A DNA stretch of 32,000 bases from Nostoc punctiforme PCC 73102 (GCF_000020025.1 NC_010628.1:1560001-1592000), one strand, 5' to 3'. Shown: positions 1-23,690, counted from the first letter of the stretch. Notes: a model not told the origin generated them from the sequence alone. Made by a program: numbers and translations.

Positions 1-475
1 GTAAAGCTTGCTGAATACGCTTAATGGCTGCTTCGACCCGAGCAGGAGATAAGCCACCAGCACCAAATGAACTTAAAATTTTCTCTTTGCCAAGGGCAAT
101 TACCAGTTCTTCAGAAGCAATCCCTTGAGCCATTGCGCCCGTGGCATAAGCGTATTTTACACCATGAAATTTGAGAAAAGTTGAATCGCCTAATTGCCGA
201 GTTGACAGAGGTGGAGTAGATACTAATATTTCTGCCTGTCCTGTTTTTCCTTGGTTGCAAGGATATAGATAACCTTCGTTAGTTGCACCAACTTTTCCTT
301 CAACTCTAATAATATAACAAGGCTTTTCTAAATTTAGAAGCTTAGATTTTATGCCTTTTTCGTTAAAAGATACAAAATCTAAAATACCTTGCCAAACTTG
401 ATTTTGTTGGGAAATATAGTCTGAAATTTTTAGGTAGTTACCATTGTTATTTAGTATATTATCTGCACCAATCAT
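1..475 (-). CDS. PfaD/HglD-like trans-acting enoyl reductase (FMN, 2-nitropropane-dioxygenase-like) of PUFA/Hgl-type synthases; 5' part only, gene continues past the left window edge
   Basis: Own minus-strand translation from ATG (475-473): MIGADNILNN...STRQLGDSTFLKFHGVKYAYATGAMAQGIASEELVIALGKEKILSSFGAGGLSPARVEAAIKRIQQAL. The Y-x-x-GAMA-x-GIAS...FGAGGL pattern is the PfaD-family hallmark. GGAGG Shine-Dalgarno lies 9 nt upstream (485-489 on the complement). Same strand and directly downstream of the two PKS genes. Confidence 0.8.
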   Translation of the reverse strand, partial: MIGADNILNNNGNYLKISDYISQQNQVWQGILDFVSFNEKGIKSKLLNLEKPCYIIRVEGKVGATNEGYLYPCNQGKTGQAEILVSTPPLSTRQLGDSTFLKFHGVKYAYATGAMAQGIASEELVIALGKEKILSSFGAGGLSPARVEAAIKRIQQAL

Positions 476-571
476 CTTTTTTAACCTCCAGTTCCAGAAA
501 ATTGTTTACCAGATAATGTTTGAAGAATTTACAGCAGATTTTATACTGATTACCTGTGAGGTTGCTCTAGA

Positions 572-593
572 ACAAGGGGCTTAAGCCCCTTGT
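572..593. repeat. Perfect 22-nt palindrome ACAAGGGGCTTAAGCCCCTTGT in the spacer between the CLF-AT gene and the enoyl reductase gene
   Basis: Read directly. It can form a 9-bp stem with a TTAA loop on either strand. Confidence 0.9.
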
Positions 594-660
594 CTTACTA
601 AACTTGATTGTGTACCAATTATTTATTCAAATAATCTGGTTACTTTGCTGCTTTAAATGA

Positions 661-3600
661 TTATGATTCAAATAACTTTTGATAACAAGCTATTTGCAAC
701 TGAATGATGACGCTAATTTGCTTTAGTGACTCCTGTCGTGCTTGTAAAAAGACAGCATGAGCTTTGGTCATCCTGGAAGCGTTCTCACTCAGCTTTTGAT
801 AGTAAGGACTGTGTAAATTGAGCAAATTGGTTTCGTCAACAATGCTGGATGTTTTCAAACTAGGGGTCAAAGCGAATTGATTATTTTCCTGTTCTGTTAC
901 CAAATTTTCGTTAATTTGTAATTTTTCTACACTTTCATTGCGTTCTTGTAACAATAACTGAGTAGGTTGGCTGCTATTTTGAAAGTTAACTTGCTCTTGG
1001 AGACTTTCTAGATTTCTAGAGGTGTTTTCAAGACTTTTGGTAGGATTAGAGAGCAAAGAAGAATTCATTTTTGGAAATTCCTTTAATTCTGATAGTTGAG
1101 ATTGCTGCTGATTAACAGTTTTGATGGGATATCTAAAAGAGATATCTTGAAGGATTTCTTGATTTTTTTTATTCAAAGATGTGTAACTAATCTTGGTATT
1201 GTCCAAGGTTATAGTTTTCACACTAGGTTGGCTTTGGTTGAAAATTTCTGGCTCTTGAGAATATAGTGGTGATAAATCCAGATCAACTCTGTGGCTGAGG
1301 AGTTTGGCTAAAGCTTTGATAATAGAAGCATGATCGTCTACACCTCTTTTATTAAGAGACACTGTGATGTGTTCTTTTGCATTAAGGGTTTTATCAATCC
1401 ATCTAGAACAGTTACTACCAGCACCTACTTCGAGGAATATTTTGAAGCCATCTTCATAGACGCGATTAATTAGCTGAGGAAAATTAAGCTGTTGACAGAG
1501 ATTTTGAGCAATATTGTGAGCAATAGAATGGCTATCAAGGTCAATGGGTTTATACTCAGCTGCGGAATAGAAAATAGTCTCTGGGATGTTTCGGCTAGGT
1601 AATGTATTTAATCTCACAAGTTCATCGTACTCAGAGCGCATTGCCTCGCAATGAATTACATGGGTGAAGGGAGCAGAAAAAGCATTACAATTTAGGCTAG
1701 CGATAACTCGCTGACAGGCTTGGATTTCACCAGCGATCGCAACTTCTTCTGTAGTGTTAATTAAAGGCAAATAGACGCGGTTTTCATATTTGATAGTTTC
1801 CTGAACGCGGGATACTGGACACATGAGAATATAATTGCGCCAAAAATCTTCGCCTTGTTGATTCTGCTCTTGAGGTAATCCCCAATACTCGCGCACAGCA
1901 TTTTTTTCACCAGATAGCCTTGTCTTCAGCAGAGATGATGAGTTAAAGCCCTCGCTACCTTCTTGAAACTGAGTCCAGACACCCTGAGCCAACATCATAC
2001 TGATTTCGCCCAAGCTATAACCAAAAGCACATTCGGATTTGAGTTGGAAATAATTTTTCAGAATTGCTGTCATGAGTCCAGCACAGGCCATCTCTGATTC
2101 GAGTACTGCTACTGAATCATTGAGCAATTGCTGTTCGAGGACTTCTAATTGCCTGTTTGACAATTTTTCTAAGCTTCGGGGATAAATAAGTTTTTCTACG
2201 TTGGCGACACGGTTGTAGATGCTTCTGATGAAAGGATCGTCGTAAAGTTGAGGGAATAAGCGAAACAGATTCCGACCTAGACCGATATAAGCACTAAAGG
2301 CACCTGGGTAAACGAAAGCAATTTTACTTTTTTGACCTAGTGGTTTTGCTGTAAAATAGCTGCCTAGAGGACTTTGCCAGTCTTTCCCTGTCTTGAAGGC
2401 ATTGACAATACCCTTGAGGGAGTGCTGAATTTCGCGCTGCAATTCATCTTGATTGTGTCCGAGAATTGCTACTGCATAAGTTGCCTGTTGATGCTGTTGA
2501 AAAGCTTTAAAAGTCAGCCTAGCAGCAGTAGATAGGGAAGAACAATTTTGAATGGTTTGTTGAAGAGTACGGATTTCCTCTAATAGGGTTGATTGATCGT
2601 CAGCTGCGATCGCAAACACATAGTAAGGCATTTGCTCTAAATACCTGCTGCTGTGATGTTGCTGATATACTTCCTCTGACAAAATTAAATGTGCATAACT
2701 CCCATCTATCTCCATCCCGTTAATCGCAGCTATTCTTCTAGTGGCTCCTTTTTCTAAAAACCAGGGTTTTGATTCAGAAGCGACATAAAAGGGACTATCT
2801 CGCCAAATCTCTGGCATTTTAGGACCAGACCACTGGGGAACTGCGGGAATGTAACGATGATACAGGCAAAGTGCTGTTTTAATCAGGCTAACTATCCCCG
2901 ATGCAGCATAGGTATGACCTATATTTGCTTTAATACTCCCGATCGCACAAGTTAAATTTGGCTCAAATGTGCGATAAGCTGCGAGCAACCCTTGAATTTC
3001 TGACTCATCTTGCTGGGGAATTCCACTACCAACAACTTCCAAATAGTTGATATCTCTTGGTTTGATATCTGCAAGATGAAAAGCCTGTTGACAAGCCTGG
3101 GCTATCATTTCAGAATTTGGAACCGTGAGAGAGTGAATTTTAGATTTTGAATTTTCCACAAGACTAAGAGCGTCAATCGTTGCATATATGCGATTGTTCT
3201 CTCGTTTTGCTGTTTCGTGGAGCTTCAATACTACAGCCGCCGCACCCTCACCGACTATCCAGCCATTGGCTTTCTGGTCGTAACTGAGAGTATTCACACC
3301 TGTGTTAACTTTTGTTATTTCATTTCGTTGTAAAACACTAGCGCCATCCCCAGCAAGGTCAATCGCACCGACTAAAACAGCGTCTACTTCTCTGATTGCG
3401 AGTAGCTTTTGGGCAAGCTCCAAGGCTTTAAAAACAGAATTTTGTTCGGCAATTAATGTGAATGTCGGTCCAGCAAAATTCCACAGTTTGGAAATATAAT
3501 TAGCTGGACTGTTTTCGATGTAGTCGGTATATTCATTATCTTCAACTTGCTCTTTTTGTTGATGCAGAGTTAGATCTTTAGTAATAGCAATAATAATTGC

Positions 3601-3972
3601 TATTCTCGTACTTTTACGAAGTGCCGCATCTTTTAGAGCATTATCAGCAACCTGAAGCATCAACAGTTCTTGAGGGTTAAAATTGTCTACTTCTTCTGGT
3701 GGTATTTCTAAACTGAAAGTATCAATTTCAAAATCTTTAATATATGCACCTAATGGTGCTACACCATCGGGAAGACTGTAGTTTTTCAACAACTGTTGTT
3801 GTGCTTCTATTGCTTGCCATCGCTGAGGAGGTCTGGAAATAAAATGCTGAGTTCCCTCATAAATACTGCGTTCAAAGGTATCTAATCCCTTGCAGCCGCC
3901 ACCCAAATAGCAATCCATCCCTACAATCGCTATTTTATGAATTTTATTTTGTGCAAATTCTTCCATCACCAC
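661..3972 (-). CDS. KSQ/chain-length-factor-like ketosynthase fused to an acyltransferase-like domain, with a Q/N/S-rich C-terminal tail (HglG/PfaB-like subunit)
   Basis: 1103-aa ORF. The KS fold is present (IAIVGMDCY..., KANIGHTYAASG), but the active-site Cys position reads IAEQNS (Gln177, nt 3442-3444) when aligned to DAACASS of the upstream KS. The first catalytic His motif reads EVVGSGI instead of EAHGTGT. AT-like domain has FVYPGAFSAY and GYSLGE (Ser653, nt 2014-2016). Residues ~905-1103 are low complexity. Confidence 0.85.
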   Translation of the reverse strand: MVMEEFAQNKIHKIAIVGMDCYLGGGCKGLDTFERSIYEGTQHFISRPPQRWQAIEAQQQLLKNYSLPDGVAPLGAYIKDFEIDTFSLEIPPEEVDNFNPQELLMLQVADNALKDAALRKSTRIAIIIAITKDLTLHQQKEQVEDNEYTDYIENSPANYISKLWNFAGPTFTLIAEQNSVFKALELAQKLLAIREVDAVLVGAIDLAGDGASVLQRNEITKVNTGVNTLSYDQKANGWIVGEGAAAVVLKLHETAKRENNRIYATIDALSLVENSKSKIHSLTVPNSEMIAQACQQAFHLADIKPRDINYLEVVGSGIPQQDESEIQGLLAAYRTFEPNLTCAIGSIKANIGHTYAASGIVSLIKTALCLYHRYIPAVPQWSGPKMPEIWRDSPFYVASESKPWFLEKGATRRIAAINGMEIDGSYAHLILSEEVYQQHHSSRYLEQMPYYVFAIAADDQSTLLEEIRTLQQTIQNCSSLSTAARLTFKAFQQHQQATYAVAILGHNQDELQREIQHSLKGIVNAFKTGKDWQSPLGSYFTAKPLGQKSKIAFVYPGAFSAYIGLGRNLFRLFPQLYDDPFIRSIYNRVANVEKLIYPRSLEKLSNRQLEVLEQQLLNDSVAVLESEMACAGLMTAILKNYFQLKSECAFGYSLGEISMMLAQGVWTQFQEGSEGFNSSSLLKTRLSGEKNAVREYWGLPQEQNQQGEDFWRNYILMCPVSRVQETIKYENRVYLPLINTTEEVAIAGEIQACQRVIASLNCNAFSAPFTHVIHCEAMRSEYDELVRLNTLPSRNIPETIFYSAAEYKPIDLDSHSIAHNIAQNLCQQLNFPQLINRVYEDGFKIFLEVGAGSNCSRWIDKTLNAKEHITVSLNKRGVDDHASIIKALAKLLSHRVDLDLSPLYSQEPEIFNQSQPSVKTITLDNTKISYTSLNKKNQEILQDISFRYPIKTVNQQQSQLSELKEFPKMNSSLLSNPTKSLENTSRNLESLQEQVNFQNSSQPTQLLLQERNESVEKLQINENLVTEQENNQFALTPSLKTSSIVDETNLLNLHSPYYQKLSENASRMTKAHAVFLQARQESLKQISVIIQLQIACYQKLFES

Positions 3973-4128
3973 CTCCTCAAGCTGATGTATATATTTTGTA
4001 AGAATTCAGGAGTCAGAATAGTTAAAGAATCAGGATAAAATTTGATGAATCAATCATATTAGATTCCTTCTAAATCTAACTTCTGACTCCTTAATGCTGA
4101 ATTCTTATGACATTTCTCAGTTGCCTAT

Positions 4129-7100
4129 TTAAATTTCATCTAGTTGCTTGGGTAAAATAGTTCCCTTAGCACCAAGCATTCGGGTATATATTTTCCCTTG
4201 CTGATTATGGGCGATGACATCAACAACTAAACTCGATTCTGTCTTTGATTTTATTTCACAAGAAACGTAAAATGTTTCATCAAATGGAACGGCAGCAAAC
4301 TGTTCAAAAGTTTTGATTTCTGAAGGTAAACAAGCTACCTGATAAAAATGCTGCGCCCAAATCCAAAATGCATGAATCTGCACATCTGCAATGTAGGGAT
4401 TGAATGTTTGGACTGGGAATTGTCCTTGTTGTCTTTCTCCAGGCTCTGGCAAGTAGCATTCTATGGCGATCTTGTCCAGATTGGCATTTAAAACAGATTT
4501 TACACCTTGAAAGGTAAATCCGTGAAATAAGCTAGCTGCCCCATTTTGATAAAGTGATGAAGTCGTCGCGGTGATTTTATGATCCTGGCTTAAGTTCATA
4601 AATTCGTGTGTTGGGGGAATAAGAATTTCCCGCTTCAATTTCATCTGACTACTAAAATGATAACGGATTTTACCTTCTGGCGTTTTACTCCAGATTTTGG
4701 CATCAAAATCTATCTCATTAATATCATGTTTAGCAACTTCTTGCAATTCTAAAGTGTATTCAGTTGCTAAATTTTCATCAAATATTAGTCCCTTCAAAAC
4801 TTTATAATTTGTACAACTGAAGGCTTTATAACCAGGATAGATTTGTTCGCAAGCGTTAGCAATCCATAAGAGTCCACAAGTCGCGGGGAGAACTGGATAG
4901 CCAGCAATTACATGATCTTGTAAAAATGGATTAGCTGCTAATGTTAGTTGCCTCTGAATCCGAAAAGTTCTCAACTCGCTTGGTAACTTTTCTGGGATAT
5001 ATACTAAGGGACTACCAATTACAACTTGCACAGTTTCTTGATTGGTGCTAGCTAATTCATCAACTAACATTTCTGTACCAATATCAACAGGAATAGTCTC
5101 GATATTCCGTTCAGCAAAAGCTTGCTTTAATTCAGGAGAAACCATACCACTATCCCAAGGGCCCCAATTAATCGCTACTACATGAGAATGGGGATGGTTG
5201 CGTTTGACAAGGTGGGCTGATTTGTTGAGAATTTCATTAGCGATCGCATAATCTGACTGTCCCACGTTTCCGTAGAAACCAACTACAGAAGAAAACAGGA
5301 CTAAATAATTCAGTTGGCTAGGTGTTACACACCGCAACAGGTTTTCTAGACCTTTAACTTTGGCAGTGTAAACTGTTTCAAAATCTTGGACTGATTTTTT
5401 CTCAATCCGCTTATCAGCTAGATTTCCAGCCCCATGAATAATTCCTGTTACCGGGCCAAAACGCTTGACAGCATTAGCAACTTGCTCTTGAAGTGCGATC
5501 GCATCAGTCACATCAACATTTAAATATTCAGCTTTTCCACCCGCCTTGTTGATAGCTTGTAAGGTTGTAGCAATTTCGCGACTAGATGAAATAGCGTTAA
5601 ACTTTTTCTGCACCATTGCAGGTGTGGGTTTTTCGCCTTTGGCGAAGAAATCCTCCATAATCCGCTTTTTCAAATCTGCTTCGCTTAAGTAACCTTCAGT
5701 CCATACGGGTTCTGGATCGGCGGTGGAACGACCCACCAAGATAAATTTGCATTGATAACGCTGCGCTAGTTTAATCACACACTGAGCCGTTATCCCTTTC
5801 GCACCGCCGCTTACGAGAAATACTTGGGATTTGGCATTAGGGATGGGGAAAACGTTGGAGGAAAAAGTGTTGGGTGCAAAGGGGATTCCGTCGATTTCCT
5901 GCTCTCTATTTTTTTGTTCTTCCTGTTCACATACTAGGGTTACTCGCTCTTGTGAGTTATATCCCACTTCCACAACTAATAGATTTGGGTCGTGAAGTTC
6001 GGCGAGGATATGCTGTGCTGATGTTTCGGCATCTAAATCAGGACTGAGGTCAATGGCTCGGCAAAATACAGATTCCCATTCCTGGTTCAAACTTTTAGTA
6101 AGTCCGAATAGTCCAGCGCCAATTGCACCGAAGTTAGTTTTTTGTCCTAGTCCAAATTCGCCATCCAGACGAGCCACAGTTATAAAACTACTACGTCCTT
6201 GAACTGCTGCTTGATTGAGCGGTTCTTTAAGATATTTGGCGATGAGAAAGACATGGCGAAGGATGGCTTTTTCTGATTCTAGATAACGGACATGGTTGCT
6301 TATATCGTCGTGAGTGGAAGGATTCAGATGGATAAATGTAGCTATTTGTCCATAGTTAGTAGCGATCGCTCCTAACTGTTCTCGCAAATGCTCCTCACTC
6401 AAATCTGCAAGCACCACACGGCTAATCCCTTCAGGTAACGGAGATTGTTTAGCAATCACGGTTGAAGGAAAAGTTAAGACAACGGTTTTCCAGCCGCGTT
6501 TGAACAGAGTCTCAGCTAGTTTCGCCGTAGTCAGAGAACCATCATCGGTAAGCAAGGCGATATGGTTATCGGGTAAGGTGAAATCTAAAACATCAGGTTC
6601 GGGAAGATATTTGAGTCTGACAGGATTGCGAAGAATTGAGGATTGGGGACTGGGGGTTGGGCATTGGGGATTGGGAATTGGGGATTGGGAAAACTCTTTC
6701 CCGCTTTCTTGTGCTTTTTCTATATGTGCAACAATTTGTCCAAGGGTACGTAATTGAGCCAATGCTTCTGAATTCATCTTGGGTAAATCCGGGTATAGTT
6801 CTAGCAACGCTTCGAAAATTTCCACAAGTTTGACAGCATCAATTCCCAAATCTGTCTCTATATCCATCGACAAATCTAACATCGTCGTCGAATAGCCTGT
6901 CTTTTCACTAACGACATTGAACACAATGTTAGTAAGCTCTGGAGATGAGGGGGATGGTGGGGATGAGGAAGGTATTGCTGTTACTCCTCCATTTCCCTCA
7001 TCTCCCTTATCTTCTCCATCTCCTTCTGCTCCCTGCTCCCGTTCGGCTACGCTCACGGCAAGCCCGCTCCCTGAATCATTTGGGGCGTTGACAAAGCCCG

Positions 7101-10100: not shown

Positions 10101-11247
10101 ATCCGGCATCTTCGTAAGCACGATGCAAAGCTCTCATTTGACCTTCTGGACGTGGCGCATAGATACTTTTATAGCGACCATCGCTAGAAGTTCCAATGCC
10201 TTTAATGACTGCATAGATTCGGTCATTATCTCGCTGGGCATCCTCAAGGCGTTTCAGGACTAACATTCCCACACCTTCACCTAGCATCATCCCATCTGAT
10301 TCTGCATCGAAAGGTTTAACATTCTCACCTTGGGAAACAGCAGGAGTTTTGCTGAAGCACATGTAGGCCATAATTGAGTTGTCGGTGTCAACTCCGCCAG
10401 TGATCATCATATCGGCTCGATGCTCAATTAGCTCGCTCATTGCCATTTTGAGCGCACCTAATGAACTGGCGCAAGCGGCATCTACTACACAGTTAGTTCC
10501 GCCCAAATCTAGGCGATTGGCAATTCTTCCTGTAACTACGTTTGCCAGCATACCGGGGAAGGCATTCTCATCCCACTGCACATAAGCACTTTTGATTTTC
10601 TCAATGATTTTTTGTGTATCATCGTCAGATAAGCCACTGCCTTTGAGGACTTTTTCCCAAACCGGGTACTGCATTCTCACAGTCAGAGGAACCGCCAACT
10701 GTCTGCCTAGTGCCACACCTAAGATTACACCAGTGCGTTGGCGAAGGCGATCGTAGATATCGCTGTTAAACTGTCGAGATTCGCCGTAACCTGCATCTTC
10801 CATCGCTGCTTTCGCAACAATCAGACCTAGCAATTGCGATATATCTGTGACTTCTAGGCTGTTGGGTGGCAGCCCAAATTCCATCGGATTGAAATTGACA
10901 TCCGGGATAAATCCACCTCTTTTACAATAGGTCTTATCAGGTGTTCTGGGGTTAGGATCGTAATAATCCTCTACACTCCAACGCGAAGAGGGAACATCAG
11001 TAATACAATCAACTTTGTGAATTATTTTTTCCCAATATTCCTGTAAATTTTTGGATTGGGGAAAGATTGAAGCCATCCCAATAATTGCAATATCTGTTTT
11101 TTGCTGAGGTCTATTTATTTCGCTGGTTAACGGTGCATTCTCAACCATAACTTTTTTCACCTGTATGAGCTTTAGTAGAGCCTGTTCACAATTGCTAACT
11201 TCTTCTTGCAACTGTGCTAAAACAGCTTCAATTCTAGAAGCAGTCAT
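4129..11247 (-). CDS. PfaA/HglE-like iterative type I polyketide/fatty-acid synthase, KS-AT-ACP-ACP(Ser->Ala)-KR-DH
   Basis: 2372-aa ORF. Motifs read in translation:
- KS: DAACASS (Cys259, nt 10471-10473), EAHGTGT, SQIGHTKAAAG
- AT: FSGQGSQ, GHSFGE (Ser730, nt 9058-9060), AAFHTP
- ACP1: LGIDSIKRVEIL (Ser1331, nt 7255-7257)
- ACP2: LGIDAVKLVEIF (Ala1471, nt 6835-6837)
- KR: VSGGAKGIT Rossmann motif and SDYAIAN
- C-terminal PS-type DH: HVIAGYPVLP (His2112, nt 4912-4914). Confidence 0.93.
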   Translation of the reverse strand: MTASRIEAVLAQLQEEVSNCEQALLKLIQVKKVMVENAPLTSEINRPQQKTDIAIIGMASIFPQSKNLQEYWEKIIHKVDCITDVPSSRWSVEDYYDPNPRTPDKTYCKRGGFIPDVNFNPMEFGLPPNSLEVTDISQLLGLIVAKAAMEDAGYGESRQFNSDIYDRLRQRTGVILGVALGRQLAVPLTVRMQYPVWEKVLKGSGLSDDDTQKIIEKIKSAYVQWDENAFPGMLANVVTGRIANRLDLGGTNCVVDAACASSLGALKMAMSELIEHRADMMITGGVDTDNSIMAYMCFSKTPAVSQGENVKPFDAESDGMMLGEGVGMLVLKRLEDAQRDNDRIYAVIKGIGTSSDGRYKSIYAPRPEGQMRALHRAYEDAGFSPTSVGLIEAHGTGTMAGDPAEFSSIKEVFGENNPKKQHIALGTVKSQIGHTKAAAGAASLIKTALALHHKVLPATINVTKPHPKLDIDSSPFYLNTETRPWISGDDQPRRAGVSSFGFGGTNYHVVLEEYTSQHQQPYRLHKPSQSVLLFASTPEELLSRIQEIRQQLQSDTGEQLYTELIAASQSLEIPVTNARLGFVADSLTQACDLLQTSIDLLTSKLQAESWEYPQGIYYRKTGIATEGKVVALFSGQGSQYLEMGRELLINFPDLGQTYAQIDNLLREDGLQPLSEVVFPNPVFDLDQKTAQMKVLQQTEYAQPAIGAFSAGLYKILQQAGFKPDFVAGHSFGELTALWAAGVLNEKDYLFLVKARGQAMAAPKDPLLDAGAMLAVKGDVNQVTELIQNFPQVTIANLNSPNQMVLAGTKAEIANVQEALKTQGFSSILLGVSAAFHTPLVAYAQQPFARAIEKVTFNEPQIPVYTNVTGKRYPNEPQVIQKLLKEHLKNQVLFKQEIENIYAEGGYCFIEFGPRSVLTNLVKDILSDRPHLAVALNASHLKDSDRTLRQAVLQLRVAGLPLQNLDPYQLEYKIPEASPNQLLNVRLNSTNYVSEKTKQSFEKAMQNGHHVNGNKPNFSHSAEKVAVNGQSPVGNGNKPHSVTANPSHSAEKVTVNGGVKSVQNGQSDQLDIKSLQPSSELPLSYLRAIDNLEYSLIDFSRNQHEILQVHEQSLNNQTEYTKTFFQLMEQQHAVWGNSKFSEPHTETQQLVISSSERSIMRFHEHQTDSLRIHEQYLNYQQEYTNNFFQLLQRNYQPSPSNTTQQNLIPPVNYQPSPVAPPAEEDNPVRETAPVALPSNGFATKSEPVLTNGNGTNGNGNGNGAHHQATAVLDVTPLKENTAPIEIAPEPPLIIDQATLSETLINIVSDKTGYPTEMLELTMDIEADLGIDSIKRVEILGALLELYPDLPKPDPEEVGQLRTLAQIAEYMGKIASEISGAIPATGFVNAPNDSGSGLAVSVAEREQGAEGDGEDKGDEGNGGVTAIPSSSPPSPSSPELTNIVFNVVSEKTGYSTTMLDLSMDIETDLGIDAVKLVEIFEALLELYPDLPKMNSEALAQLRTLGQIVAHIEKAQESGKEFSQSPIPNPQCPTPSPQSSILRNPVRLKYLPEPDVLDFTLPDNHIALLTDDGSLTTAKLAETLFKRGWKTVVLTFPSTVIAKQSPLPEGISRVVLADLSEEHLREQLGAIATNYGQIATFIHLNPSTHDDISNHVRYLESEKAILRHVFLIAKYLKEPLNQAAVQGRSSFITVARLDGEFGLGQKTNFGAIGAGLFGLTKSLNQEWESVFCRAIDLSPDLDAETSAQHILAELHDPNLLVVEVGYNSQERVTLVCEQEEQKNREQEIDGIPFAPNTFSSNVFPIPNAKSQVFLVSGGAKGITAQCVIKLAQRYQCKFILVGRSTADPEPVWTEGYLSEADLKKRIMEDFFAKGEKPTPAMVQKKFNAISSSREIATTLQAINKAGGKAEYLNVDVTDAIALQEQVANAVKRFGPVTGIIHGAGNLADKRIEKKSVQDFETVYTAKVKGLENLLRCVTPSQLNYLVLFSSVVGFYGNVGQSDYAIANEILNKSAHLVKRNHPHSHVVAINWGPWDSGMVSPELKQAFAERNIETIPVDIGTEMLVDELASTNQETVQVVIGSPLVYIPEKLPSELRTFRIQRQLTLAANPFLQDHVIAGYPVLPATCGLLWIANACEQIYPGYKAFSCTNYKVLKGLIFDENLATEYTLELQEVAKHDINEIDFDAKIWSKTPEGKIRYHFSSQMKLKREILIPPTHEFMNLSQDHKITATTSSLYQNGAASLFHGFTFQGVKSVLNANLDKIAIECYLPEPGERQQGQFPVQTFNPYIADVQIHAFWIWAQHFYQVACLPSEIKTFEQFAAVPFDETFYVSCEIKSKTESSLVVDVIAHNQQGKIYTRMLGAKGTILPKQLDEI
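4132..4974 (-). other. PKS-type (double hot-dog) dehydratase domain (aa ~2092-2372)
   Basis: HxxxGxxxxP motif as LQDHVIAGYPVLPAT. The C-terminal ~280 aa have the length expected of a PS-DH. Confidence 0.7.
5023..6615 (-). other. Ketoreductase region (structural plus catalytic subdomains, aa ~1545-2075)
   Basis: Rossmann motif FLVSGGAKGITAQC, IIHGAGNLAD, catalytic-Tyr region SSVVGFYGNVGQSDYAIANE. Boundaries approximate. Confidence 0.75.
6642..6702. repeat. Seven tandem STRR1-like heptamers plus a GGGAAA/TTTCCC hairpin, lying inside the synthase coding sequence
   Basis: attgggg actgggg gttgggc attgggg attggga attgggg attggga aaactctttccc. Read on the minus strand as ...GKEFSQSPIPNPQCPTPSPQS... 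in the ACP2-KR linker. Confidence 0.85.
6712..6939 (-). other. ACP-like domain 2 (aa ~1437-1512), with Ala at the phosphopantetheine-serine position
   Basis: NIVFNVVSEKTGYSTTMLDLSMDIETDLGIDAVKLVEIFEALLELYPDLP. Clearly paralogous to ACP1, but the codon is GCT (Ala) where ACP1 has TCG (Ser). Confidence 0.8.
7132..7362 (-). other. ACP domain 1 (aa ~1296-1372), canonical DSI phosphopantetheine site
   Basis: TLINIVSDKTGYPTEMLELTMDIEADLGIDSIKRVEILGALLELYPDLP. Confidence 0.85.
8473..9366 (-). other. Malonyl-type acyltransferase domain (aa ~628-925)
   Basis: GQGSQ, GHSFGE, AAFHTPLV motifs. Boundaries approximate. Confidence 0.8.
9706..11094 (-). other. Ketosynthase domain of the 2372-aa synthase (aa ~52-514)
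   Basis: DIAIIGMASIF start, Cys259/His393/His434 triad motifs, GGTNYHVVLEEY end. Boundaries are approximate, from residue counting. Confidence 0.85.
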
Positions 11248-11905
11248 GACTTTTTCTTCACTATTAGATTTTTGAGATGTAAAGATGATAATAAAATTAC
11301 CATCTCTACAAATAGAGAAAGACGCGATTATTTTTTAGGTAAGGCTAGGGGCTATTGATGGTAAGCGAGATGCCTTTACTTGAGGTTCAGAAGCTATAAA
11401 CAAGACTTCAAGAGATTTTAGTGATGATATTCTGAAGTCTCAATGTAGAATTCAGATTTCTTTTGTGCTAAAGAATTGTTCTAAATTAGAAATGGCTTCA
11501 AAGTTACAACATAAGTTGTTAATCAGATGTAAATTGGATATTTTCATCCAGCTAACATCTCAACTTCTCAATTGTAGTTAATATTAGGCTGTTTAACTAT
11601 CCATTACAACTGATATACAACTTATATACAACGGTATAGCTCTTGAGAGGTAAAATCTCATTAGGCATAACTTCTTAGTCCATTTCAATAACGGTACTAG
11701 TAGCCTATCAGCCCGATCTCTTTTTGTCTCTGACTCTGTGTTCTCTGTGCCTCTGTGGTTCATCTCATTAAATTTGCTGGGTAAATAAGTTTATGGTTAG
11801 AATTTTCTAAGCGCTTTAATGATTAGTACAAACCCTCAAAATTAGCTTAGAAAAGTACATTTTCTGATTGCAATTTGAGAAGTGAATCAGAACCTAGATA
11901 TAAAC

Positions 11906-12190
11906 TTATACAGAATCTTTTTCGGAATTAAAATTGTCGTCTCCTTTATTACTTATCGTCTGGTTTTGAGCAGCAGCTAATAGCTTTTGCTCAAGCTTAC
12001 TAATACTAATTCCCAGCTCAGAAGCTTTTTTTGTTTTCCACTCTTCTAGCTCACAATCATGTTGATTGAGCCATTCACGCACCGCAACGCGGGCCATCTC
12101 AGCTTTGCGAAGAGTCTGGCGAGCTGCATGAAAAATCAGTCGCTGGTTATCAAAGCTTGGCAATGAGAGCATGAATCGCTGTAGTTTCAT
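11906..12190 (-). CDS. Small ribbon-helix-helix-like (CopG/Arc/MetJ-type) putative DNA-binding protein. The ORF is open up to 12304, but Met39 (12190) is the more plausible start.
   Basis: From Met39: MKLQRFMLSLPSFDNQRLIFHAARQTLRKAEMARVAVREWLNQ... This fits the RHH pattern (short beta strand RFMLSLP, then helix-turn-helix ending ...REWL). Same orientation as the PKS operon and upstream of it. No SD seen. Assignment is by pattern only. Confidence 0.4.
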   Translation of the reverse strand: MKLQRFMLSLPSFDNQRLIFHAARQTLRKAEMARVAVREWLNQHDCELEEWKTKKASELGISISKLEQKLLAAAQNQTISNKGDDNFNSEKDSV

Positions 12191-13014
12191 TTTATCTGGG
12201 GTCTTTAGGGGGCGATCGCTGTCACTCACATAACTATTAGAACTCTTTTCAATTAGTATGTCACATAACAAAAATACATTACTCGAATTGCATACAAATT
12301 GCATATATTTTCAATTTAGTACTCACCTCTTACTCGAAAAAATACTGAAAAAAAGTATTAGAATATCAACAACATTAGGCTGCTATTAGTTTATTTATTA
12401 TTGAAAAATAGAGATGATAGCTACTTAAACAAGCTAAGTGCCTGTGAGTTAATGCTATAGTTTTTACATCTATCCAAAAGTTGATTTATTTCTTTTGAAG
12501 ATTGTGTATTAATCAATAAGATATTTTTAAAAGATTTTTATTCCCAAAGAAGTAATTACGTCTGCAATGTAACAATAACCACTAGCAACTATATCTAAAG
12601 AATGAAAAATACTAGCGAACAACAGACCCACTATAAAGCAAAGACTTATTTTGATATGCTGAGTAATAGCGAGGACATAACAGTGTTAAAAAGTGGTCAA
12701 AGATCGCAATTATTTTTCATGAATTGTATCGATTACATTGCTAACTATTTCGCTTCACAACTGTTGCATATAGGTTGCAATTGAGTATCAATCAGTTTAT
12801 CGTAAGTGATTAAATAATGTAATTCAATACTGTCTGTTTAAGAAGGTGGAGAGATACATAAATAGGGAGAATAAAAATATAAATTCACCTGATTGCTGGT
12901 CACTCTATACATTCATAAACGCGCAGTATGACAATGTGATTTAATGCAATGAACCGTATTGTATGAAGCCTTCTGCATAATTAGACTGTCACGAAAATAT
13001 AAGGGTTTGCTGGC

Positions 13015-13338
13015 ATGAGACTATCTGAGCTAGATCCACTCATCCCGCTAATTGAGTTAAGAGAAGAACTCCTGAAGCTACCAAAAGGCTACTCATTTTA
13101 TGAAGATGAACTGGTAGATTTTTTATCTCGACGAAGATGGACTGAAAGTAATCGCCGCATTGATCGGACAACTTTCTGGCGGTGGAGAAATGACAACGGC
13201 ATTGAACATCAAAAAGTATTTAGTCGATTAGATATCTTGAAACTCTGCCAAATTTGCGACCACTATCGCATAGATGGAACTCGCAACGAATATCTGGCGA
13301 TCGTTAAAAGTAAAAAAGAGGCGGTTCTTAACAAATAA
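13015..13338 (+). CDS. Hypothetical 107-aa protein with a possible excisionase/MerR-like HTH segment
   Basis: ORF track. The segment RRIDRTTFWRWRNDNGIEH resembles the (S/T)xxTxYRWxxxGxxP helix of HTH_17/AlpA-type domains. It sits 300 bp upstream of devB on the same strand. No SD. Weak evidence. Confidence 0.4.
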   Translation: MRLSELDPLIPLIELREELLKLPKGYSFYEDELVDFLSRRRWTESNRRIDRTTFWRWRNDNGIEHQKVFSRLDILKLCQICDHYRIDGTRNEYLAIVKSKKEAVLNK

Positions 13339-13637
13339 AGCTACCTCTGGCTAGATACATAAAGTACCAAACTGCTTCATCCAAAGTTAATTTACTAACA
13401 GATTGATTTATGGATCGATATGATTGATGTTAGTAATATCTAGCTTTGGGAGATACCCCAACCCCCCTTAAAAAGGGGGGCTTAATTCACTCATTCAAAA
13501 TAGTTACTTTTACCCGCTTCAAGCTGAATTAGAGTGTTTATCTTGGCAATGATATAAGGTCTAATTTCATCTCTGCTATTTCTGAATAATTTCGAAAGGC
13601 CTTGTTCTCAGACATCGCTAATTTGGAATAGGTAATT

Positions 13638-14843
13638 ATGGTACAAAAACAAAAACAGTCATTCATCAAACCATTAATTAAGCCTGTAGTTTGGTGGCCA
13701 GTTATATTAGCAACTACTATGACTCTAGCTACTGGTGCAGCCTCTTTCTATACCTTTTCACGATTTCAGTTGTCCTCGAAAGTGCAGCCTCTAGCTACCC
13801 CACGTAGTTCTCCTAAAATGACTACTATTGCAGCATTAGGACGTTTAGAACCTCAAGGAGAGGTCATTCGTTTATCGGCTCCAGAGTCCCAAGGGGGTGT
13901 TAGGGTAACAAAACTTATGGTAAACAAAGGAGACAAAGTGCGACAGGGGCAAGTAGTTGCAATGCTTGACAGTTACTTTCCTCGTCTTGCAGCTTTAGAA
14001 AAAGCCCAACAACAAGTCTTAGTTGCTCAAGCCAGTCTTAACCAAGTAAAAGCTGGCGCAAAAGCTGGAGATATCTCTGCACAAAAAGCAACCATTGCTC
14101 GTTTAGAAGCTGAGTTGCGCGGAGAAACTTCTGCCCAAGAAGCAACGATCGCTCGCTTACAGGCTGATTGGCGGAATGCTGAAAGCGAAAATCAGCGATA
14201 TCAGCAGTTATATAAAGATGGTGCGATTTCAGCCTCCGACGCAGATACTAAACGTTTGCGAGTCGATACAGTTCAACAGCAACTCAATGAAGCTAAAGCT
14301 TCTCTCAAGCGCAGTATAGAAACTCTTCAAAAGCAGTTAATAGAGGCTAAAGCCAGACTCAAGAGTATTGCTGAGGTTCGTCCTACCGATATAGCAGCAG
14401 CACAAGCTGATGTCGAAAATGCCTTAGCCTCAGTTAACCAGGCTAAGGCAGAGTGGGATTTAAGTATTGTGCGATCGCCCATAACCGGGCAAATCATGAA
14501 AATTAATACTTGGCCTGGAGAAATTATCGGCACTACAGGAATAGCTGATTTAGGTCGCACACAACAGATGTATGTGGTAGCAGAAGTCTATGAAACTGAT
14601 ATTAAAAAAGTACGTATCGGTCAATCTGCGATTATTACTAGTGATGCTTTACCAGGTAAATTACGAGGAAAAGTTACAGATATTGGTTTACAAGTTGGCA
14701 AACAAAATATCTTTAACAACAATCCTCAAGCAGACACAGATAACAAAATAGTTGATGTAAAAATTCGTATTGATAATCTTCAAGATAACCAGCGAGTTGC
14801 TGGGCTGACTGATTTACAGGTAGAGGTAATTATTGATATTTAA
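13638..14843 (+). CDS. devB: DevB-family membrane fusion protein (HlyD-like periplasmic adaptor) of a DevBCA-type ABC exporter
   Basis: 401 aa. N-terminal TM helix (VVWWPVILATTMTLATGAASFY), lipoyl-like hairpin, long coiled coil with the duplicated SAQxATIARL(E/Q)A motif, and a beta-barrel C-terminus. Followed by devC and devA. Confidence 0.9.
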   Translation: MVQKQKQSFIKPLIKPVVWWPVILATTMTLATGAASFYTFSRFQLSSKVQPLATPRSSPKMTTIAALGRLEPQGEVIRLSAPESQGGVRVTKLMVNKGDKVRQGQVVAMLDSYFPRLAALEKAQQQVLVAQASLNQVKAGAKAGDISAQKATIARLEAELRGETSAQEATIARLQADWRNAESENQRYQQLYKDGAISASDADTKRLRVDTVQQQLNEAKASLKRSIETLQKQLIEAKARLKSIAEVRPTDIAAAQADVENALASVNQAKAEWDLSIVRSPITGQIMKINTWPGEIIGTTGIADLGRTQQMYVVAEVYETDIKKVRIGQSAIITSDALPGKLRGKVTDIGLQVGKQNIFNNNPQADTDNKIVDVKIRIDNLQDNQRVAGLTDLQVEVIIDI

Positions 14844-14993
14844 AACTTCTCAAGAAAGCTTTGTTAATTCATTGAACGTCCCTGCCCTACCTAATACTAA
14901 TTCGTAATTGACTACGCTTTAACAGAAAGTTCTTGATTCAAACAAAGCATTCTTTCTTAATTTAGTCTAATTTCCACCCTTGAGGTTTACTAA

Positions 14994-16166
14994 ATGATTC
15001 TCAATATCCCCTTAGCTTGGTTACAACTAGCCAGACAAAAAATTCGCTTTCTTGTAGCTTTGGCTGGGATTGCTTTTGTTGCAGTTCTCATGTTTATGCA
15101 AATTGGTTTTCAAGCTGCTCTTTATGATAGTGCCACGCAGTTACATAAGAATCTAGAAGGAGACTTATTTTTAATCAGTGCCCAATATAAATCTCTAACG
15201 TCAAATCAAAGCTTTCCTCGCTCACGCTTATATCAAGTATTAGGTTTTGATAATGTCGAATCAGTTAGCCCGTTATATGTGCAATTCGCCAAATTTAAAA
15301 ATCCCAACAATGGTCTAAAGTTTCCATTATACGTGCTGGGATTTGACCCAGTTAAATCAATTTTCAAATTCCCACATATCGACGAAAAGCTCGATCTAAT
15401 CAGAATCCCTAATATCGTTTTATTTGACCGCGATTCTCGACCAGAATTTGGAGCGATCGCTAAAGATTTTGAACAAGGTAAAGTTATAAAAGTTGAAATA
15501 TTCAGCTACACTGGATTAGTTGGTTACAAAGTTAAGGTTGGTGGTTTATTTCGCCTCGGACCTTCCTTTGGTGTTGATGGGAATTTAATCGTTAGTTCTT
15601 CAACTTTCCTCAGAATATTTCAAGATCGTCCGGCACAAAAGATAGATATAGGATTAATTAAGCTCAAACCTAATACCGACCAACAAAAAGTTTTTGCAGA
15701 TTTATCAGCCAACTTACCCAAAGACGTAAAAGTAATTACTCGCAAAGATTTTATTGCTTTGGAAAAAACTTATTGGTCTCTTAGAACACCCATTGGATTC
15801 GTGTTTAATCTGATGGTATTAATGGGGTTTGTTGTTGGTGTAATTGTTGTTTATCAAATTCTTTATAGTAATATTTCTAGTCATTTAACTGAATATGCAA
15901 CCTTAAAAGCAATGGGATTCAAAAACAAATACTTATTAAGTGTAGTTTTTCAACAAGCTTTAATCTTAGCATCTCTAGGTTATATTCCAGGTTTGGCTAT
16001 ATCTCTAGCCTTATATGATGTATCAAAAAATGCTACTAAATTACCAGTTATTATGAGTACAGATAAAGCCATTCTAGTATTGATATCAGCAACATTAATG
16101 TGCTTAACTTCTGGGTTTTTATCTACAAACAAACTCCGAAAAGTAGATCCAGCAGATATTTTTTAA
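14994..16166 (+). CDS. devC: DevC-family ABC exporter permease (FtsX/MacB-like, 4 TM with a large periplasmic loop)
   Basis: 390 aa. N-terminal TM (FLVALAGIAFVAVLMF), ~230-aa extracytoplasmic domain, and a C-terminal FtsX-type 3-TM bundle (...ATLKAMGFKNKYL...). Lies between devB-like and devA-like genes. Confidence 0.9.
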   Translation: MILNIPLAWLQLARQKIRFLVALAGIAFVAVLMFMQIGFQAALYDSATQLHKNLEGDLFLISAQYKSLTSNQSFPRSRLYQVLGFDNVESVSPLYVQFAKFKNPNNGLKFPLYVLGFDPVKSIFKFPHIDEKLDLIRIPNIVLFDRDSRPEFGAIAKDFEQGKVIKVEIFSYTGLVGYKVKVGGLFRLGPSFGVDGNLIVSSSTFLRIFQDRPAQKIDIGLIKLKPNTDQQKVFADLSANLPKDVKVITRKDFIALEKTYWSLRTPIGFVFNLMVLMGFVVGVIVVYQILYSNISSHLTEYATLKAMGFKNKYLLSVVFQQALILASLGYIPGLAISLALYDVSKNATKLPVIMSTDKAILVLISATLMCLTSGFLSTNKLRKVDPADIF

Positions 16167-16300
16167 TTTTACATAGCAGTCCGCTTTAATTTCTGTTCTT
16201 GCAGCGCACATGCGATAGGTAGCTAATAGACAATAAAGCTCTTTGAGTTGTACCTAGCTTCGCAAAAATCAAATATGAGTCATATATATCTGAGAAAATC

Positions 16301-17005
16301 ATGAAAACAAAGTTTATTGTGAATATTAGCGATCTGAATCACTACTTCGGCGAGAAAAAAGTACGAAGTCAAATATTGTTCGATATTAATTTTAATATCA
16401 AATTTGGAGAAATTGTGATTATGACTGGGCCATCAGGTTCAGGAAAAACAACTTTACTAACTTTAATTGGTGGGTTACGGTCTGTCCAAGAGGGAAGCCT
16501 TCAATTTTTAGGTCAAGAGCTTTCTGGAGCTAGTAACGAGCAATTAGTTAAAGTACGCCGCCACATTGGCTATATTTTCCAAGCTCATAACTTATTAGAT
16601 TTCTTAACAGCCAGGCAAAATGTTCAAATGTCGCTAGAATTACATAAAAATATTTCTGAATGGGAAGCTCGCAGCAAATCAGAAGCTATACTAAATGCGG
16701 TTAAATTGGAGAATAGAGTTAATTATTACCCATCTGATCTCTCAGGGGGACAGAAACAACGGGTAGCAATTGCTCGGGCTTTAGTAAGTCATCCAAAATT
16801 GGTTTTAGCTGATGAGCCTACAGCTGCTTTAGACAGTAAGACAGGCCGAGATGTTGTCACCCTAATGCAGAAACTAGCTAAAGAACAGAATTGTGCTATC
16901 TTAATGGTCACTCACGACAACAGAATTTTAGATATTGCCGATCGCATAATTCAGATGGAAGATGGTTATCTGGTCAAAGAGGTTTGTCATCTACCAAATG
17001 GATGA
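16301..17005 (+). CDS. devA: DevA-family ABC exporter ATP-binding subunit
   Basis: 234 aa. Walker A GPSGSGKTT, Q-loop, signature LSGGQKQRVAIARAL, Walker B LVLADEPTAALD, H-loop VTHD. Confidence 0.93.
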   Translation: MKTKFIVNISDLNHYFGEKKVRSQILFDINFNIKFGEIVIMTGPSGSGKTTLLTLIGGLRSVQEGSLQFLGQELSGASNEQLVKVRRHIGYIFQAHNLLDFLTARQNVQMSLELHKNISEWEARSKSEAILNAVKLENRVNYYPSDLSGGQKQRVAIARALVSHPKLVLADEPTAALDSKTGRDVVTLMQKLAKEQNCAILMVTHDNRILDIADRIIQMEDGYLVKEVCHLPNG

Positions 17006-18016: not shown

Positions 18017-18844
18017 ATGACCATGAAGCCTTTTAATTTATCTAAAACTGTTCTGGCTACTGCCTTTGCCATCAGTTTCGCTTCTGTATCTTTACCTCCT
18101 TCTGTTTTTGCCCAAAGCGGAGGCTCAGGTAGTGGAGGTTCTAGTAGTGGTAGTAGCTCAGGGACTGGAACTACAGGTACTGGAACTACAGGTACTGGCT
18201 CTGGAACTACAGGCTCTGGCTTAGGTACTGGCTCAGGCACTGGTTCTGGGGCTGAAACTACAGGCTCTGGCTTAGGTACTGGCTCAGGCACTGGTTCTGG
18301 GGCTGGAACTACAGGCTCTGGCTTAGGTACTGGAACTACAGGCACTGGTTCCGGGGCTGGAACTACAGGCTCTGGCTTAGGTACTGGAACTACAGGTGCT
18401 GGCTCAGGTACTGGAACTACAGGCACTGGCTCAGGGACTGGAACTACAGGCTCTGGCTTAGGTACTGGTTCCGGGACTGGAACTACAGGTACTGGTTCAG
18501 GTGCTGGAACTACAGGCACTGGTTCCGGGGCTGGAACTACAGGCACTGGTTCCGGGGCTGGAACTACAAGCACTGGTTCAGATGCTGGCACAACAGGTAC
18601 TGGCACAACAGGTACTGGAACTACAAGTACTGATCCTACAGGCACTGGCACAACAGGTACTGACACTACAGGTACTAACAGGAATACAGGTGTTACAACT
18701 TCCGAAAGAACTAGCGATCGCGGTTTCGATTGGGGTTGGCTAGGTTTACTTGGTCTAGCCGGTTTAGCAGGTCTGGCTCGTAATCGTGATAAAGTCCGGG
18801 CTTATAGCGATCCGAATGAAGTAACGGGTACTCGTTCTAGATAG
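18017..18844 (+). CDS. Secreted Gly/Thr/Ser-repeat protein with a WGxxGxxG-type C-terminal hydrophobic/basic motif (putative cell-envelope sorting signal)
   Basis: Sec-type signal peptide [33 protein letters not shown]. About 190 aa of (G/T/S) repeats. C-terminus [26 protein letters not shown]-rich SD-like 'aaaagggac' precedes the ATG. The plus-strand frame is favoured over the antisense PVP-rich ORF because only it has a signal peptide and a recognisable terminal motif. Confidence 0.75.
18117..18680 (+). repeat. Nested in-frame tandem repeats inside the Gly/Thr-rich gene (51-bp units near 18210-18312; exact 27-bp units near 18515-18570)
   Basis: 'caggctctggcttaggtactggctcaggcactggttctggggctg(a/g)aacta' recurs at 18210 and 18261. 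'ctggaactacaggcactggttccgggg' is repeated back to back. Confidence 0.85.
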
Positions 18845-23650: not shown

Positions 23651-23690
23651 ATATACGATATATCGGAATATATCACGATATATCGGAATA
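23651..23690. promoter_or_regulatory. Candidate operator: two tandem 20-bp repeats, each with the perfect 10-bp palindrome CGATATATCG (23656-23665 and 23676-23685)
   Basis: atataCGATATATCGgaata / tatcaCGATATATCGgaata, 17/20 identical. Located 28-67 bp upstream of the padR-like start codon (23623, minus strand). Confidence 0.55.

Follow-up and report, generated by a model that had tools for sequence, protein, structure and literature searches.

The heterocyst glycolipids of cyanobacteria and the DevBCA-type exporters are textbook parts of the machinery that protects nitrogenase, and genome mining routinely files every hglE-KS (ketosynthase) region under that heading. The canonical hgl island makes C26–C32 glycolipids for the heterocyst envelope. 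In the canonical hgl island, the gene order is HglE-HglG-HglC-PfaD-HglB(thioester reductase)-SDR-HetI, in which SDR is a short-chain dehydrogenase/reductase (PMC8073705), and the characterised DevBCA pumps carry envelope glycolipids as cargo (PMC6692557, PMC8277102). Islands of this kind are those of Anabaena PCC 7120 and of the Nostoc 'Peltigera membranacea cyanobiont', in which a further KS lies between hglG and hglC, and to which hglT and hgdB/hgdC/hgdA belong. The stretch of DNA that is analysed here (NC_010628.1:1560001–1592000, 32,000 nucleotides, called the window throughout) contains, at positions 1–17,005, an hgl-type lipid synthase and a DevBCA-type exporter. Both come from familiar families, and the system that they form is widespread, conserved and in part already catalogued as an orphan biosynthetic gene cluster (BGC). 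On balance, we favour the reading that a cluster conserved in Nostocales has its upstream half in the window, and that this cluster is a sister of the hgl synthase cluster, stands head-to-head with its own DevBCA-type tripartite exporter and works by the mechanism that is proposed below. The cluster probably makes and exports a very-long-chain lipid, which would be chlorinated in this strain. This reading draws on gene content, domain motifs, order-wide synteny, a clade that is separate from hgl, and a shared DNA element.

The two arms of the locus diverge from a spacer of 2390 bp (11248–13637, ~33% GC). An earlier reading of the same DNA (the original prediction) had described this spacer as 2.4 kb long and AT-rich with two small genes, and both genes proved to be conserved. 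The genes of the two arms are as follows, with KS, acyltransferase (AT), acyl carrier protein (ACP), ketoreductase (KR), dehydratase (DH), chain-length factor (CLF) and a KS-like domain with Gln in the active site (KSQ) as the domain names:

1–475, minus strand: N-terminus (first 158 codons) of a PfaD-family trans-acting enoyl reductase (ER), which continues past the left edge
661–3966, minus strand: KSQ/CLF-AT protein, 1101 aa, with a KS-like domain, a PfaB-family AT (GYSLG) and a Q/N/S-rich tail
4129–11247, minus strand: PfaA/HglE-like iterative megasynthase, 2372 aa, KS(Cys256)-AT(GHSFG)-ACP1(GIDS)-ACP2(GIDA)-KR-DH(H2112)
11906–12190, minus strand: conserved 94-aa gene, first gene of the synthase arm, whose product begins with MKLQRFMLSLP, followed by helices
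13015–13338, plus strand: highly conserved 107-aa gene, first gene of the exporter arm
13638–14843, plus strand: DevB-family membrane fusion protein of the 'A type', 401 aa (TIGR02971, 364.5 bits; cut-off 129)
14994–16166, plus strand: DevC permease of the FtsX/MacB type, 390 aa (TIGR01185, 463.8 bits; cut-off 290; Pfam FtsX)
16301–17005, plus strand: DevA ATP-binding subunit, 234 aa (TIGR02982, 379.5 bits; cut-off 296; Pfam ABC_tran)

Family models confirmed the positions and identities of the three co-oriented synthase genes, including PfaD at the window edge, and the full devB-devC-devA set on the opposite strand, in which all three proteins score above the NCBIfam cut-offs. Each of the six large proteins passes a curated model cut-off, PfaD by way of its full gene in contig L007 (see below). 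The PfaA-like protein scores 2209 bits against the curated model TIGR02813 (cut-off 1010), and its Pfam matches are KS, AT, PP-binding, KR and PS-DH. Pfam and motifs thus bear out the predicted domain order KS-AT-ACP-ACP-KR-DH, except that the second ACP is degenerate: the serine that would carry the phosphopantetheine is an Ala (GIDA at 1471). The same replacement is present in the closest relatives, and ACP2 is probably inactive in all of them; more distant orthologues keep two intact ACPs or have one ACP only. Full-length orthologues of the PfaA-like protein, with 62–98% identity, are found in 44 loci. In the KSQ/CLF-AT protein, which starts at the ATG at 3966 as used by gene callers, the ketosynthase-like domain (Pfam ketoacyl-synt N and C domains) has a Gln at the position of the active-site Cys (AEQNS), and the C-terminal half is an AT (TIGR02816 pfaB_fam, 147.9 bits; cut-off 144.3). 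The gap between the PfaA and CLF-AT genes is 162 nt, with no room for a separate KS gene. The part of PfaD inside the window matches TIGR02814 over residues 91–158, and the complete protein in L007 (553 aa) scores 665.8 bits (cut-off 449).

Contig L007, which was retrieved by exact-protein look-up, is 100.000% identical to window positions 1–7055 and therefore continues the window's own genome. After PfaD, its genes lie in the order CylC-like, Fer2, ACP, condensation (Cdom), P625, epimerase remnant, GT4 and ATP-binding cassette (ABC) exporter:

L007, start 15 nt after PfaD: CylC-like protein, 432 aa, with a precomputed match to Pfam PF28091
L007, after the CylC-like gene: [2Fe-2S] ferredoxin, Fer2
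L007, after the ferredoxin: free-standing ACP, 101 aa
L007, after the ACP: condensation-family protein (Cdom), 444 aa, HHAIADG, with PapA_C/PapA5 matches
L007, after Cdom: P625, 625 aa, recognisable only by its N-terminal docking domain of the TubC type (TubC_N)
L007, ~9 kb past the left edge of the window: GT4 glycosyltransferase, then the ABC exporter

The original prediction had seen no glycosyltransferase, thioester reductase or phosphopantetheinyl transferase (PPTase). This holds within the window, but the sequence to its left, when inspected, yielded the GT4 gene. It yielded neither an HglB-type (NAD_binding_4) thioester reductase after PfaD nor a HetN-like SDR in L007, and no PPTase was found in the window or L007. 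The halogenase call is based on the precomputed PF28091 match and on orthology to published clusters.

When a profile of 21 P625 orthologues was compared with PDB sequences, only docking domains were matched (AerJ, TubC and EpoB), which leaves ~570 residues of P625 without a known family. The C-terminal tail of the free-standing ACP, S(Q/E)SE(I/V)(F/I)(E/Q)(I/L), is kept in every locus and in all clades, and since the docking domain of P625 is of the kind that binds such tails, P625 most likely acts on the ACP-bound chain. The free-standing ACP is also 47–66% identical to the stretch at the start of HglB (its ACP domain), directly after PfaD, in canonical islands, which suggests that in the window-type cluster the reductase has been swapped for other release machinery. 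A candidate component is Cdom, which resembles PapA5 of mycobacterial phthiocerol dimycocerosate assembly in being a stand-alone condensation-family acyltransferase with an HHxxxDG motif; the substrate of PapA5 is a long acyl chain on the carrier protein of a synthase, which the enzyme converts into an ester. The score of Cdom against PapA5, 66.6 bits, is far under the family cut-off of 396, and the organism and pathway differ.

Several further observations concern these genes. The epimerase/SDR remnant between P625 and GT4 (L007 14334–14726) comprises 130 codons, lacks the N-terminal Rossmann motif and looks decayed. The halogenases fall into two sequence classes, 85–98% and 67–69% identical to that of this strain, when L012, L027, L035, L036 and L037 are compared with the other Nostoc loci that have CylC just after PfaD, and as the flanking genes do not show this split, the pattern suggests that the halogenase gene was replaced within the cluster in some loci. 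The region that codes for an inter-domain linker of PfaA contains an array of eight ATTGGGG heptamers (window 6635–6689), and a second, intergenic array of seven TGGGAAT heptamers lies at 28204–28256; both look like the short tandem repeats that heterocystous cyanobacteria typically have. Logan contigs L007–L010 all begin within PfaA (window ~7055), between the two ACP motifs and ~370 nt from the ATTGGGG array.

For comparison, canonical hgl islands were recovered by a metagenome scan with a PfaD alignment. In the worked example, L087, the C-terminal part of HglE, which has two ACPs, is followed by a KR-DH protein, a separate KS of 455 aa, KS/CLF-AT, PfaD, HglB (PP-binding and NAD_binding_4) and an SDR. 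The order of a PfaA/HglE-type KS-AT-ACP protein with KR-DH, KS/CLF-AT and PfaD-type ER is found both in the window and in L087, so iterative PfaA-type logic and gene order are common to the two kinds of locus. L087 contains neither Cdom nor P625, and no stand-alone KS, HglB or HetN-like SDR is encoded at the window-type locus (window and L007), where PfaA is fused and HetI is also missing. With one true KS (in PfaA) and a KSQ partner here versus an extra KS in canonical hgl, chain extension must differ between the two, as judged from their domains. At the release step, the PapA5-like enzyme and P625 would stand in for HglB reduction and HglT glycosylation. The CylC halogenase and its ferredoxin are optional in the window-type cluster and are not part of hgl. 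In both cases a DevB/DevC-type exporter adjoins the synthase, but here it is complete with its ATPase, whereas PCC 7120 has hgdB/hgdC and an epimerase. The window exporter is divergent from the synthase, and in PCC 7120 hgdB/hgdC/hgdA are part of the island. Their presence in that strain, which the original prediction had put forward for hgdB/hgdC, is documented (PMC6692557).

In neighbour-joining trees of PfaD and CLF-AT, the window-type proteins (from Nostoc, Trichormus-like strains and the Anabaena/Dolichospermum/Aphanizomenon (ADA) group) form a clade that is sister to the canonical hgl clade. Moreover, a window-type locus (L086) and a canonical one (L087) are contigs of one whole-genome shotgun (WGS) project, OGVQ01. 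ADA-clade genomes have been reported to carry two hglE-KS regions each (PMC11412076; bioRxiv 10.1101/2022.09.30.510322), and one paper compares the two with the reference heterocyst glycolipid cluster and gives similarities of 85% and 57% (PMC11412076). By our arithmetic, these values are consistent with 6/7 and 4/7 genes of a seven-gene reference cluster. All of this bears on the most conservative explanation of the locus, namely that it is just the canonical heterocyst-glycolipid island of this lineage, next to the devBCA that is already known. The synthase gene order and domain logic are indeed those of hglE/G-hglC-PfaD (PMC8073705; L087), both hglE-KS regions are called heterocyst-glycolipid clusters in papers that use antiSMASH (PMC11412076), and the exporter proteins score above the cut-offs of the DevB, DevC and DevA models. 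Set against this are the different downstream genes (CylC, ferredoxin, ACP, condensation enzyme and P625 instead of HglB, HetN-like SDR and stand-alone KS), the separate clade in both trees, the presence of both cluster types in OGVQ01 and the two regions of unequal similarity in each ADA-clade genome. In addition, PCC 7120 makes heterocyst glycolipids, yet it has no cluster at its 107-aa gene and no DevB among the best 120 matches. We therefore regard the canonical-island explanation as largely refuted and very improbable, and the proposal of the original prediction that this is a paralogous, uncharacterised lipid synthesis/export system has held up.

True polyunsaturated fatty acid (PUFA)-like clusters of Nostoc (L046, L052 and L057) fall outside both clades in the trees. 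These loci were considered as canonical hgl and rejected, as they belong to a PUFA-like third type with a PfaC that has two FabA domains; they also have a split PfaA, an amine-oxidase-like flavoprotein and PfaD, with no DevBCA nearby. The window-type locus itself (window and L007) is unlike a bacterial PUFA synthase (pfaABCDE) in that it has no FabA, one intact and one degenerate ACP, and no PPTase.

A PfaA scan with one genome per species returned 51 loci, 43 of them of the window type, and L067, which was reached from the DevB side, brings the number to 44. The genera are Nostoc, Desmonostoc, Trichormus, Nodularia, Dolichospermum, Anabaena, Cuspidothrix and Aphanizomenon, together with a Fischerella/Pelatocladus-type genome. 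The 107-aa gene and the divergent devB-devC-devA set are present in all 37 loci with at least 6 kb of upstream sequence, and the genes past devA differ between loci. Among the 37 loci with enough downstream sequence, CLF-AT, PfaD, Cdom and P625 are all present in 35, and CylC in 20. In a reciprocal test from the DevB side, the cluster adjoins DevB at each of the three loci examined:

L067: AP018298
L068: Anabaenopsis elenkinii
L069: Nostoc sp. UHCC 0870

In L069, PfaA is distributed over three open reading frames (ORFs) of 1532, 272 and 567 aa, similar to hglE/hglF/hglG (L069 1214–8555 and 9209–10000). From co-presence, co-absence (PCC 7120 appears to be without both) and invariant adjacency, we infer that the window DevBCA serves the adjacent cluster. 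Functional coupling of exporter and synthase would be in line with their synteny and co-occurrence and with a DNA element that they share.

This element became apparent in an alignment of the divergent region, in which conserved non-coding blocks contain a common TTGCAW-N5-TTGCAW. It has two exact matches in the 32-kb window (0.13 expected) and 71 in 1.43 Mb of related loci, at corresponding positions; no match was found in 17 canonical hgl loci. The two copies in the window are:

12288–12304, plus strand: tandem element of class II, AATTGCATACAAATTGCATAT, ~100 nt upstream of the 94-aa gene and in the same place in orthologous loci
12761–12790, plus strand: tandem element of class I, TGTTGCATATAGGTTGCAATTGAGTATCAAT, promoter-like, ~235 nt upstream of the 107-aa gene

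The class I element has the consensus GTTGCATATrGrTTGCAATTGAGTATC, and the orientation of the copy in the spacer is that of the 107-aa gene and devBCA. A class I copy also precedes the epimerase-remnant, GT4 and ABC genes beyond P625 (L007 14108–14145), where three tandem 11-nt repeats are followed by a -10-like box. In L020, L032 and L035, the class I element is directly upstream of PfaA, and in L069, where the 107-aa gene is deleted, it is ~170 nt upstream of devB. The 107-aa gene of PCC 7120 has a copy with one mismatch at the same distance upstream. We read TTGCAW-N5-TTGCAW as a shared promoter/operator, which argues for co-regulation: as both arms and the tail genes carry the same element, they are probably switched on together. 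Control by NtcA was considered and rejected, as neither the spacer nor the sequence ahead of the stand-alone L065 devBCA (described below) has a GTA-N8-TAC site. A scan of the whole window with Rfam and a tRNA scan gave no matches, and a generic promoter/terminator scan of the spacer gave no more matches than chance. A rearranged relative, L071 (metagenome contig Ga0070738_10005029), carries PfaA, the 107-aa and 94-aa genes and PfaD in a different order, with five copies of TTGCAW-N5-TTGCAW that include a triple tandem.

The DevBCA-HgdD exporter of PCC 7120 (Alr3710–3712), a MacB-type tripartite ABC pump, has the same three-component architecture as the window set, and the window DevBCA presumably also needs a TolC-like partner; ORF listing and family scans found no TolC-like gene in the window. 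Judging from lists of homologues and a tree, each species has about one A-type DevB. PCC 7120 is not among the best 120 DevB matches in either of two lists, which reach down to 65% identity, while the more distant Fischerella-type DevB (69–71% identity to window DevB) is among the best 120 matches listed. For this reason, the characterised DevB Alr3710 is probably a different paralogue, and PCC 7120 probably has no A-type DevB. The window set, which is always linked to the cluster, would then be a paralogue rather than an orthologue of Alr3710–3712. A stand-alone 'B-type' devBCA set was also observed, in L065 (Nostoc sp. ATCC 43529) and the P0145–P0176 group. Its DevB in L065 has 395 aa and is 68% identical to window DevB. 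The stand-alone set occurs in some Nostoc and Anabaena azotica genomes that have the cluster-linked set too, and it looks like a lineage-restricted duplicate.

These data allow another interpretation of the head-to-head arrangement, in which adjacency is merely inherited gene order, the window DevBCA is the general heterocyst-glycolipid exporter of most Nostocales, and the cluster uses another route such as the ABC exporter at its far end. In most genera, the window-type DevB is the sole one of such similarity among the matches listed, a further ABC exporter is encoded in the cluster tail in Nostoc, and the 107-aa gene, with its one-mismatch element, persists in PCC 7120-type loci that have no cluster. 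Inherited order alone would fit poorly with a pairing that holds in 37/37 loci from Nostoc to the Fischerella-type genome, though the genes past devA vary, with the finding of the cluster at 3/3 loci picked through DevB, and with PCC 7120, which appears to be without both together. The class I element stands before devBCA, the tail genes and, in some genomes, PfaA, and in some Nostoc the second, stand-alone devBCA (L065) means that the linked copy is not the sole option. We therefore consider an exporter that is unconnected to the cluster unlikely and retain the interpretation of a dedicated pump.

The two small genes of the spacer were assigned by the original prediction to the ribbon-helix-helix (RHH) and helix-turn-helix (HTH) types. 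The first lies in an ORF of 132 codons; the upstream codons hold stops in orthologues, and the gene therefore starts at an internal Met and encodes 94 aa. It is present in 28 loci, including the Fischerella-type genome, with a mean column identity of 84%, and is missing from the ADA clade in the orthologous loci compared. An RHH protein is plausible from the sequence pattern, but the matches are marginal (Pfam RHH_8, E = 0.1; in a profile-versus-PDB search, pRN1 ORF56 (2k9i) as the sole match, E = 0.067). The single-sequence model of the protein (predicted template modelling score, pTM, 0.38) is too poor for a fold search. The 107-aa gene is 86–99% identical across loci whose enzymes share 52–80% (PfaA as low as 63%). 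It has 45 homologues, none of them annotated, and only six clusters at 50% identity among 1.84 billion representatives. Its product is confidently predicted to form five helices (predicted local distance difference test, pLDDT, 89.7; pTM 0.81). The protein has no family match, and the best PDB fold match in a search with the predicted model has E = 0.44, so the HTH reading is unsupported. A location of the 107-aa gene within the long leader that precedes the canonical devBCA in PCC 7120 was considered and rejected, as the gene adjoins unrelated genes in PCC 7120-type genomes. A 60-codon ORF at 12602–12784 overlaps a conserved non-coding element and has no Pfam or NCBIfam match, and for these reasons it is not counted as a gene. 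Between the 107-aa gene and devB, the G/C hairpin CCCCCC-TTAAAAA-GGGGGG (window 13455–13483) is not followed by a T run.

Part of the system has been catalogued before. According to Eusébio et al. 2021 (PMC8406957, Fig. S10), a 'nitronate monooxygenase-containing' (NMO) class of CylC BGCs comprises three examples from one culture collection, with no product, in Nostoc sp. LEGE 12447 and LEGE 12450 and Desmonostoc muscorum LEGE 12446. L011 (LEGE 12447) and L021/L041 (LEGE 12450) are these published clusters and have 94–98% protein identity and the same gene order as the window. The class has a CylC homologue, the 'NMO' (which is PfaD), a polyketide synthase (PKS), a ferredoxin, an ACP and a glycosyltransferase, and the CylC-bearing form of the window-type cluster is this orphan class. 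No product has been assigned to it in the later literature searched. In the available part of the report DevBCA is unmentioned (PMC8406957), whereas here the CylC form is found in 20 loci and the CylC-less core across Nostocales, always with DevBCA. CylC-type enzymes are described as halogenating fatty acyl chains bound to carrier proteins (PMC8406957).

A further Nostoc pathway to a chlorinated glycolipid, the nostochloroside (ngl) cluster of Nostoc punctiforme (Glasser et al. 2024, PMC10849952), is similar to the window cluster in its CylC homologue, glycosyltransferase and sugar epimerase. However, it has a fatty acyl-AMP ligase (FAAL), a modular PKS and a CylK-type alkylating enzyme, and no PfaA/PfaD or DevBCA is reported in the available part of that paper. 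Identity with this FAAL/modular-PKS/CylK cluster was therefore rejected. The orphan C31H59O2Cl of N. punctiforme was likewise dropped as a product, as the two CylC genes of that strain have 456 and 401 codons, versus 432 here, and that N. punctiforme genome gave no locus in the PfaA scan. To our knowledge, the literature searched does not describe the order-wide core without CylC, the DevBCA set that invariably accompanies it, its sister position to hgl, the ACP derived from HglB and its docking enzyme, or the shared DNA element.

The mechanism that we propose for the cluster is as follows. Like the hgl enzymes, the PfaA-like KS-AT-ACP-KR-DH protein, the KSQ/CLF-AT protein and the trans-acting PfaD would work iteratively, and the very long, partly reduced acyl chain that they assemble would move to the free-standing ACP. 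P625 would dock on the invariant C-terminal tail of the ACP and process the chain, in place of HglB reduction and HglT glycosylation, and the PapA5-like condensation-family acyltransferase (HHAIADG) would free it in the form of an ester or an amide. The CylC-type di-metal halogenase with its own [2Fe-2S] ferredoxin, which this strain and about half of its relatives have, would chlorinate an unactivated carbon of the ACP-bound chain, in keeping with the known chemistry of CylC/CylB on carrier-bound acyl chains. The GT4 glycosyltransferase and the second ABC exporter would follow, and DevBCA, together with a TolC-like protein encoded elsewhere, would export the lipid. Both arms and the tail genes are probably co-induced through the promoter-like TTGCAW-N5-TTGCAW element.

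Several points weigh against this reading. The 107-aa gene occurs without the cluster in PCC 7120-type loci, amid unrelated genes, and the cluster occurs without the 107-aa gene in L069. The trees are simple neighbour-joining trees without support values, the evidence for co-occurrence with a canonical island comes from OGVQ01 rather than from the source genome itself, and the non-orthology to Alr3710–3712 is argued from best-120 lists rather than from a tree with Alr3710 in it. No catalytic domain is recognisable in P625, and the proposal for the release chemistry is guesswork. More generally, the cluster is known from sequence alone, from which its lipid, its expression and the roles of its genes would have to be deduced.

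A broader and more tentative view, to which we give somewhat less than an even chance, is that the cluster represents a second, order-wide system for envelope or secreted lipids, a sister of hgl. It would combine new release chemistry (the ~570-residue catalytic region of P625 on an HglB-derived ACP, and a PapA5-like esterifying enzyme), chlorination in many Nostoc, a dedicated DevBCA paralogue and a TTGCAW-N5-TTGCAW switch; within such a system, the lineage-restricted 107-aa protein may read the element. Alternatively, the cluster could be a developmental envelope-lipid pathway of heterocysts, akinetes or hormogonia rather than a specialised-metabolite pathway, with the halogenase cassette as a late addition in Nostoc. 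The order-wide and roughly species-tree-like conservation of the core (PfaA, CLF-AT, PfaD, ACP, Cdom, P625 and DevBCA), an uncommon pattern for BGCs of the toxin type, the sister relation to hgl and the presence of CylC and ferredoxin in only 20/37 loci agree with a developmental role, as does the export of envelope glycolipids by known DevBCA pumps (PMC6692557, PMC8277102). Such a role is difficult to reconcile with PCC 7120-type strains, which have working heterocysts without the cluster, and the glycolipid layer of the akinete envelope in Anabaena variabilis reportedly depends on the canonical hgl pathway (PMC8064123). Expression data for the cluster were not found in the literature searched. 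We take hglB to be the gene behind the dependence of the akinete layer. On these grounds, a purely developmental pathway appears doubtful.

In the reading that we favour, the second hglE-KS region is a distinct conserved pathway that has an exporter to itself and releases its chain with different enzymes; in many Nostoc, it also has a C–H halogenase. It offers a concrete target for a new lipid class and calls for caution in taking an 'hglE-KS' or 'DevBCA' annotation as heterocyst glycolipid function. A CylC-type halogenase whose natural substrate would be a carrier-protein-bound very-long chain is also of biocatalytic interest, and the locus offers the P625 family, with no recognisable catalytic domain, and a compact divergent control region with a conserved element.

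Outside the cluster, the window contains three further features of note. At 18017–18844 (plus strand), a 275-aa predicted secreted protein without a family match consists almost entirely of Gly/Thr/Ser repeats, with a signal peptide and a C-terminal anchor-like tail; its gene has 27- and 54-nt tandem DNA repeats at 18201–18625, and only the N-terminus is conserved in related strains. At 23651–23690, between genes for PadR-family and AraC-family regulators, the 20-nt unit ATATACGATATATCGGAAT is present twice in tandem and may be an operator. At 28837–31752 (plus strand), a 971-aa fusion protein joins a PlsY-type glycerol-3-phosphate acyltransferase to a PPDK_N ATP-binding domain and a phosphoenolpyruvate (PEP)-utilising mobile domain, which is an unusual combination.

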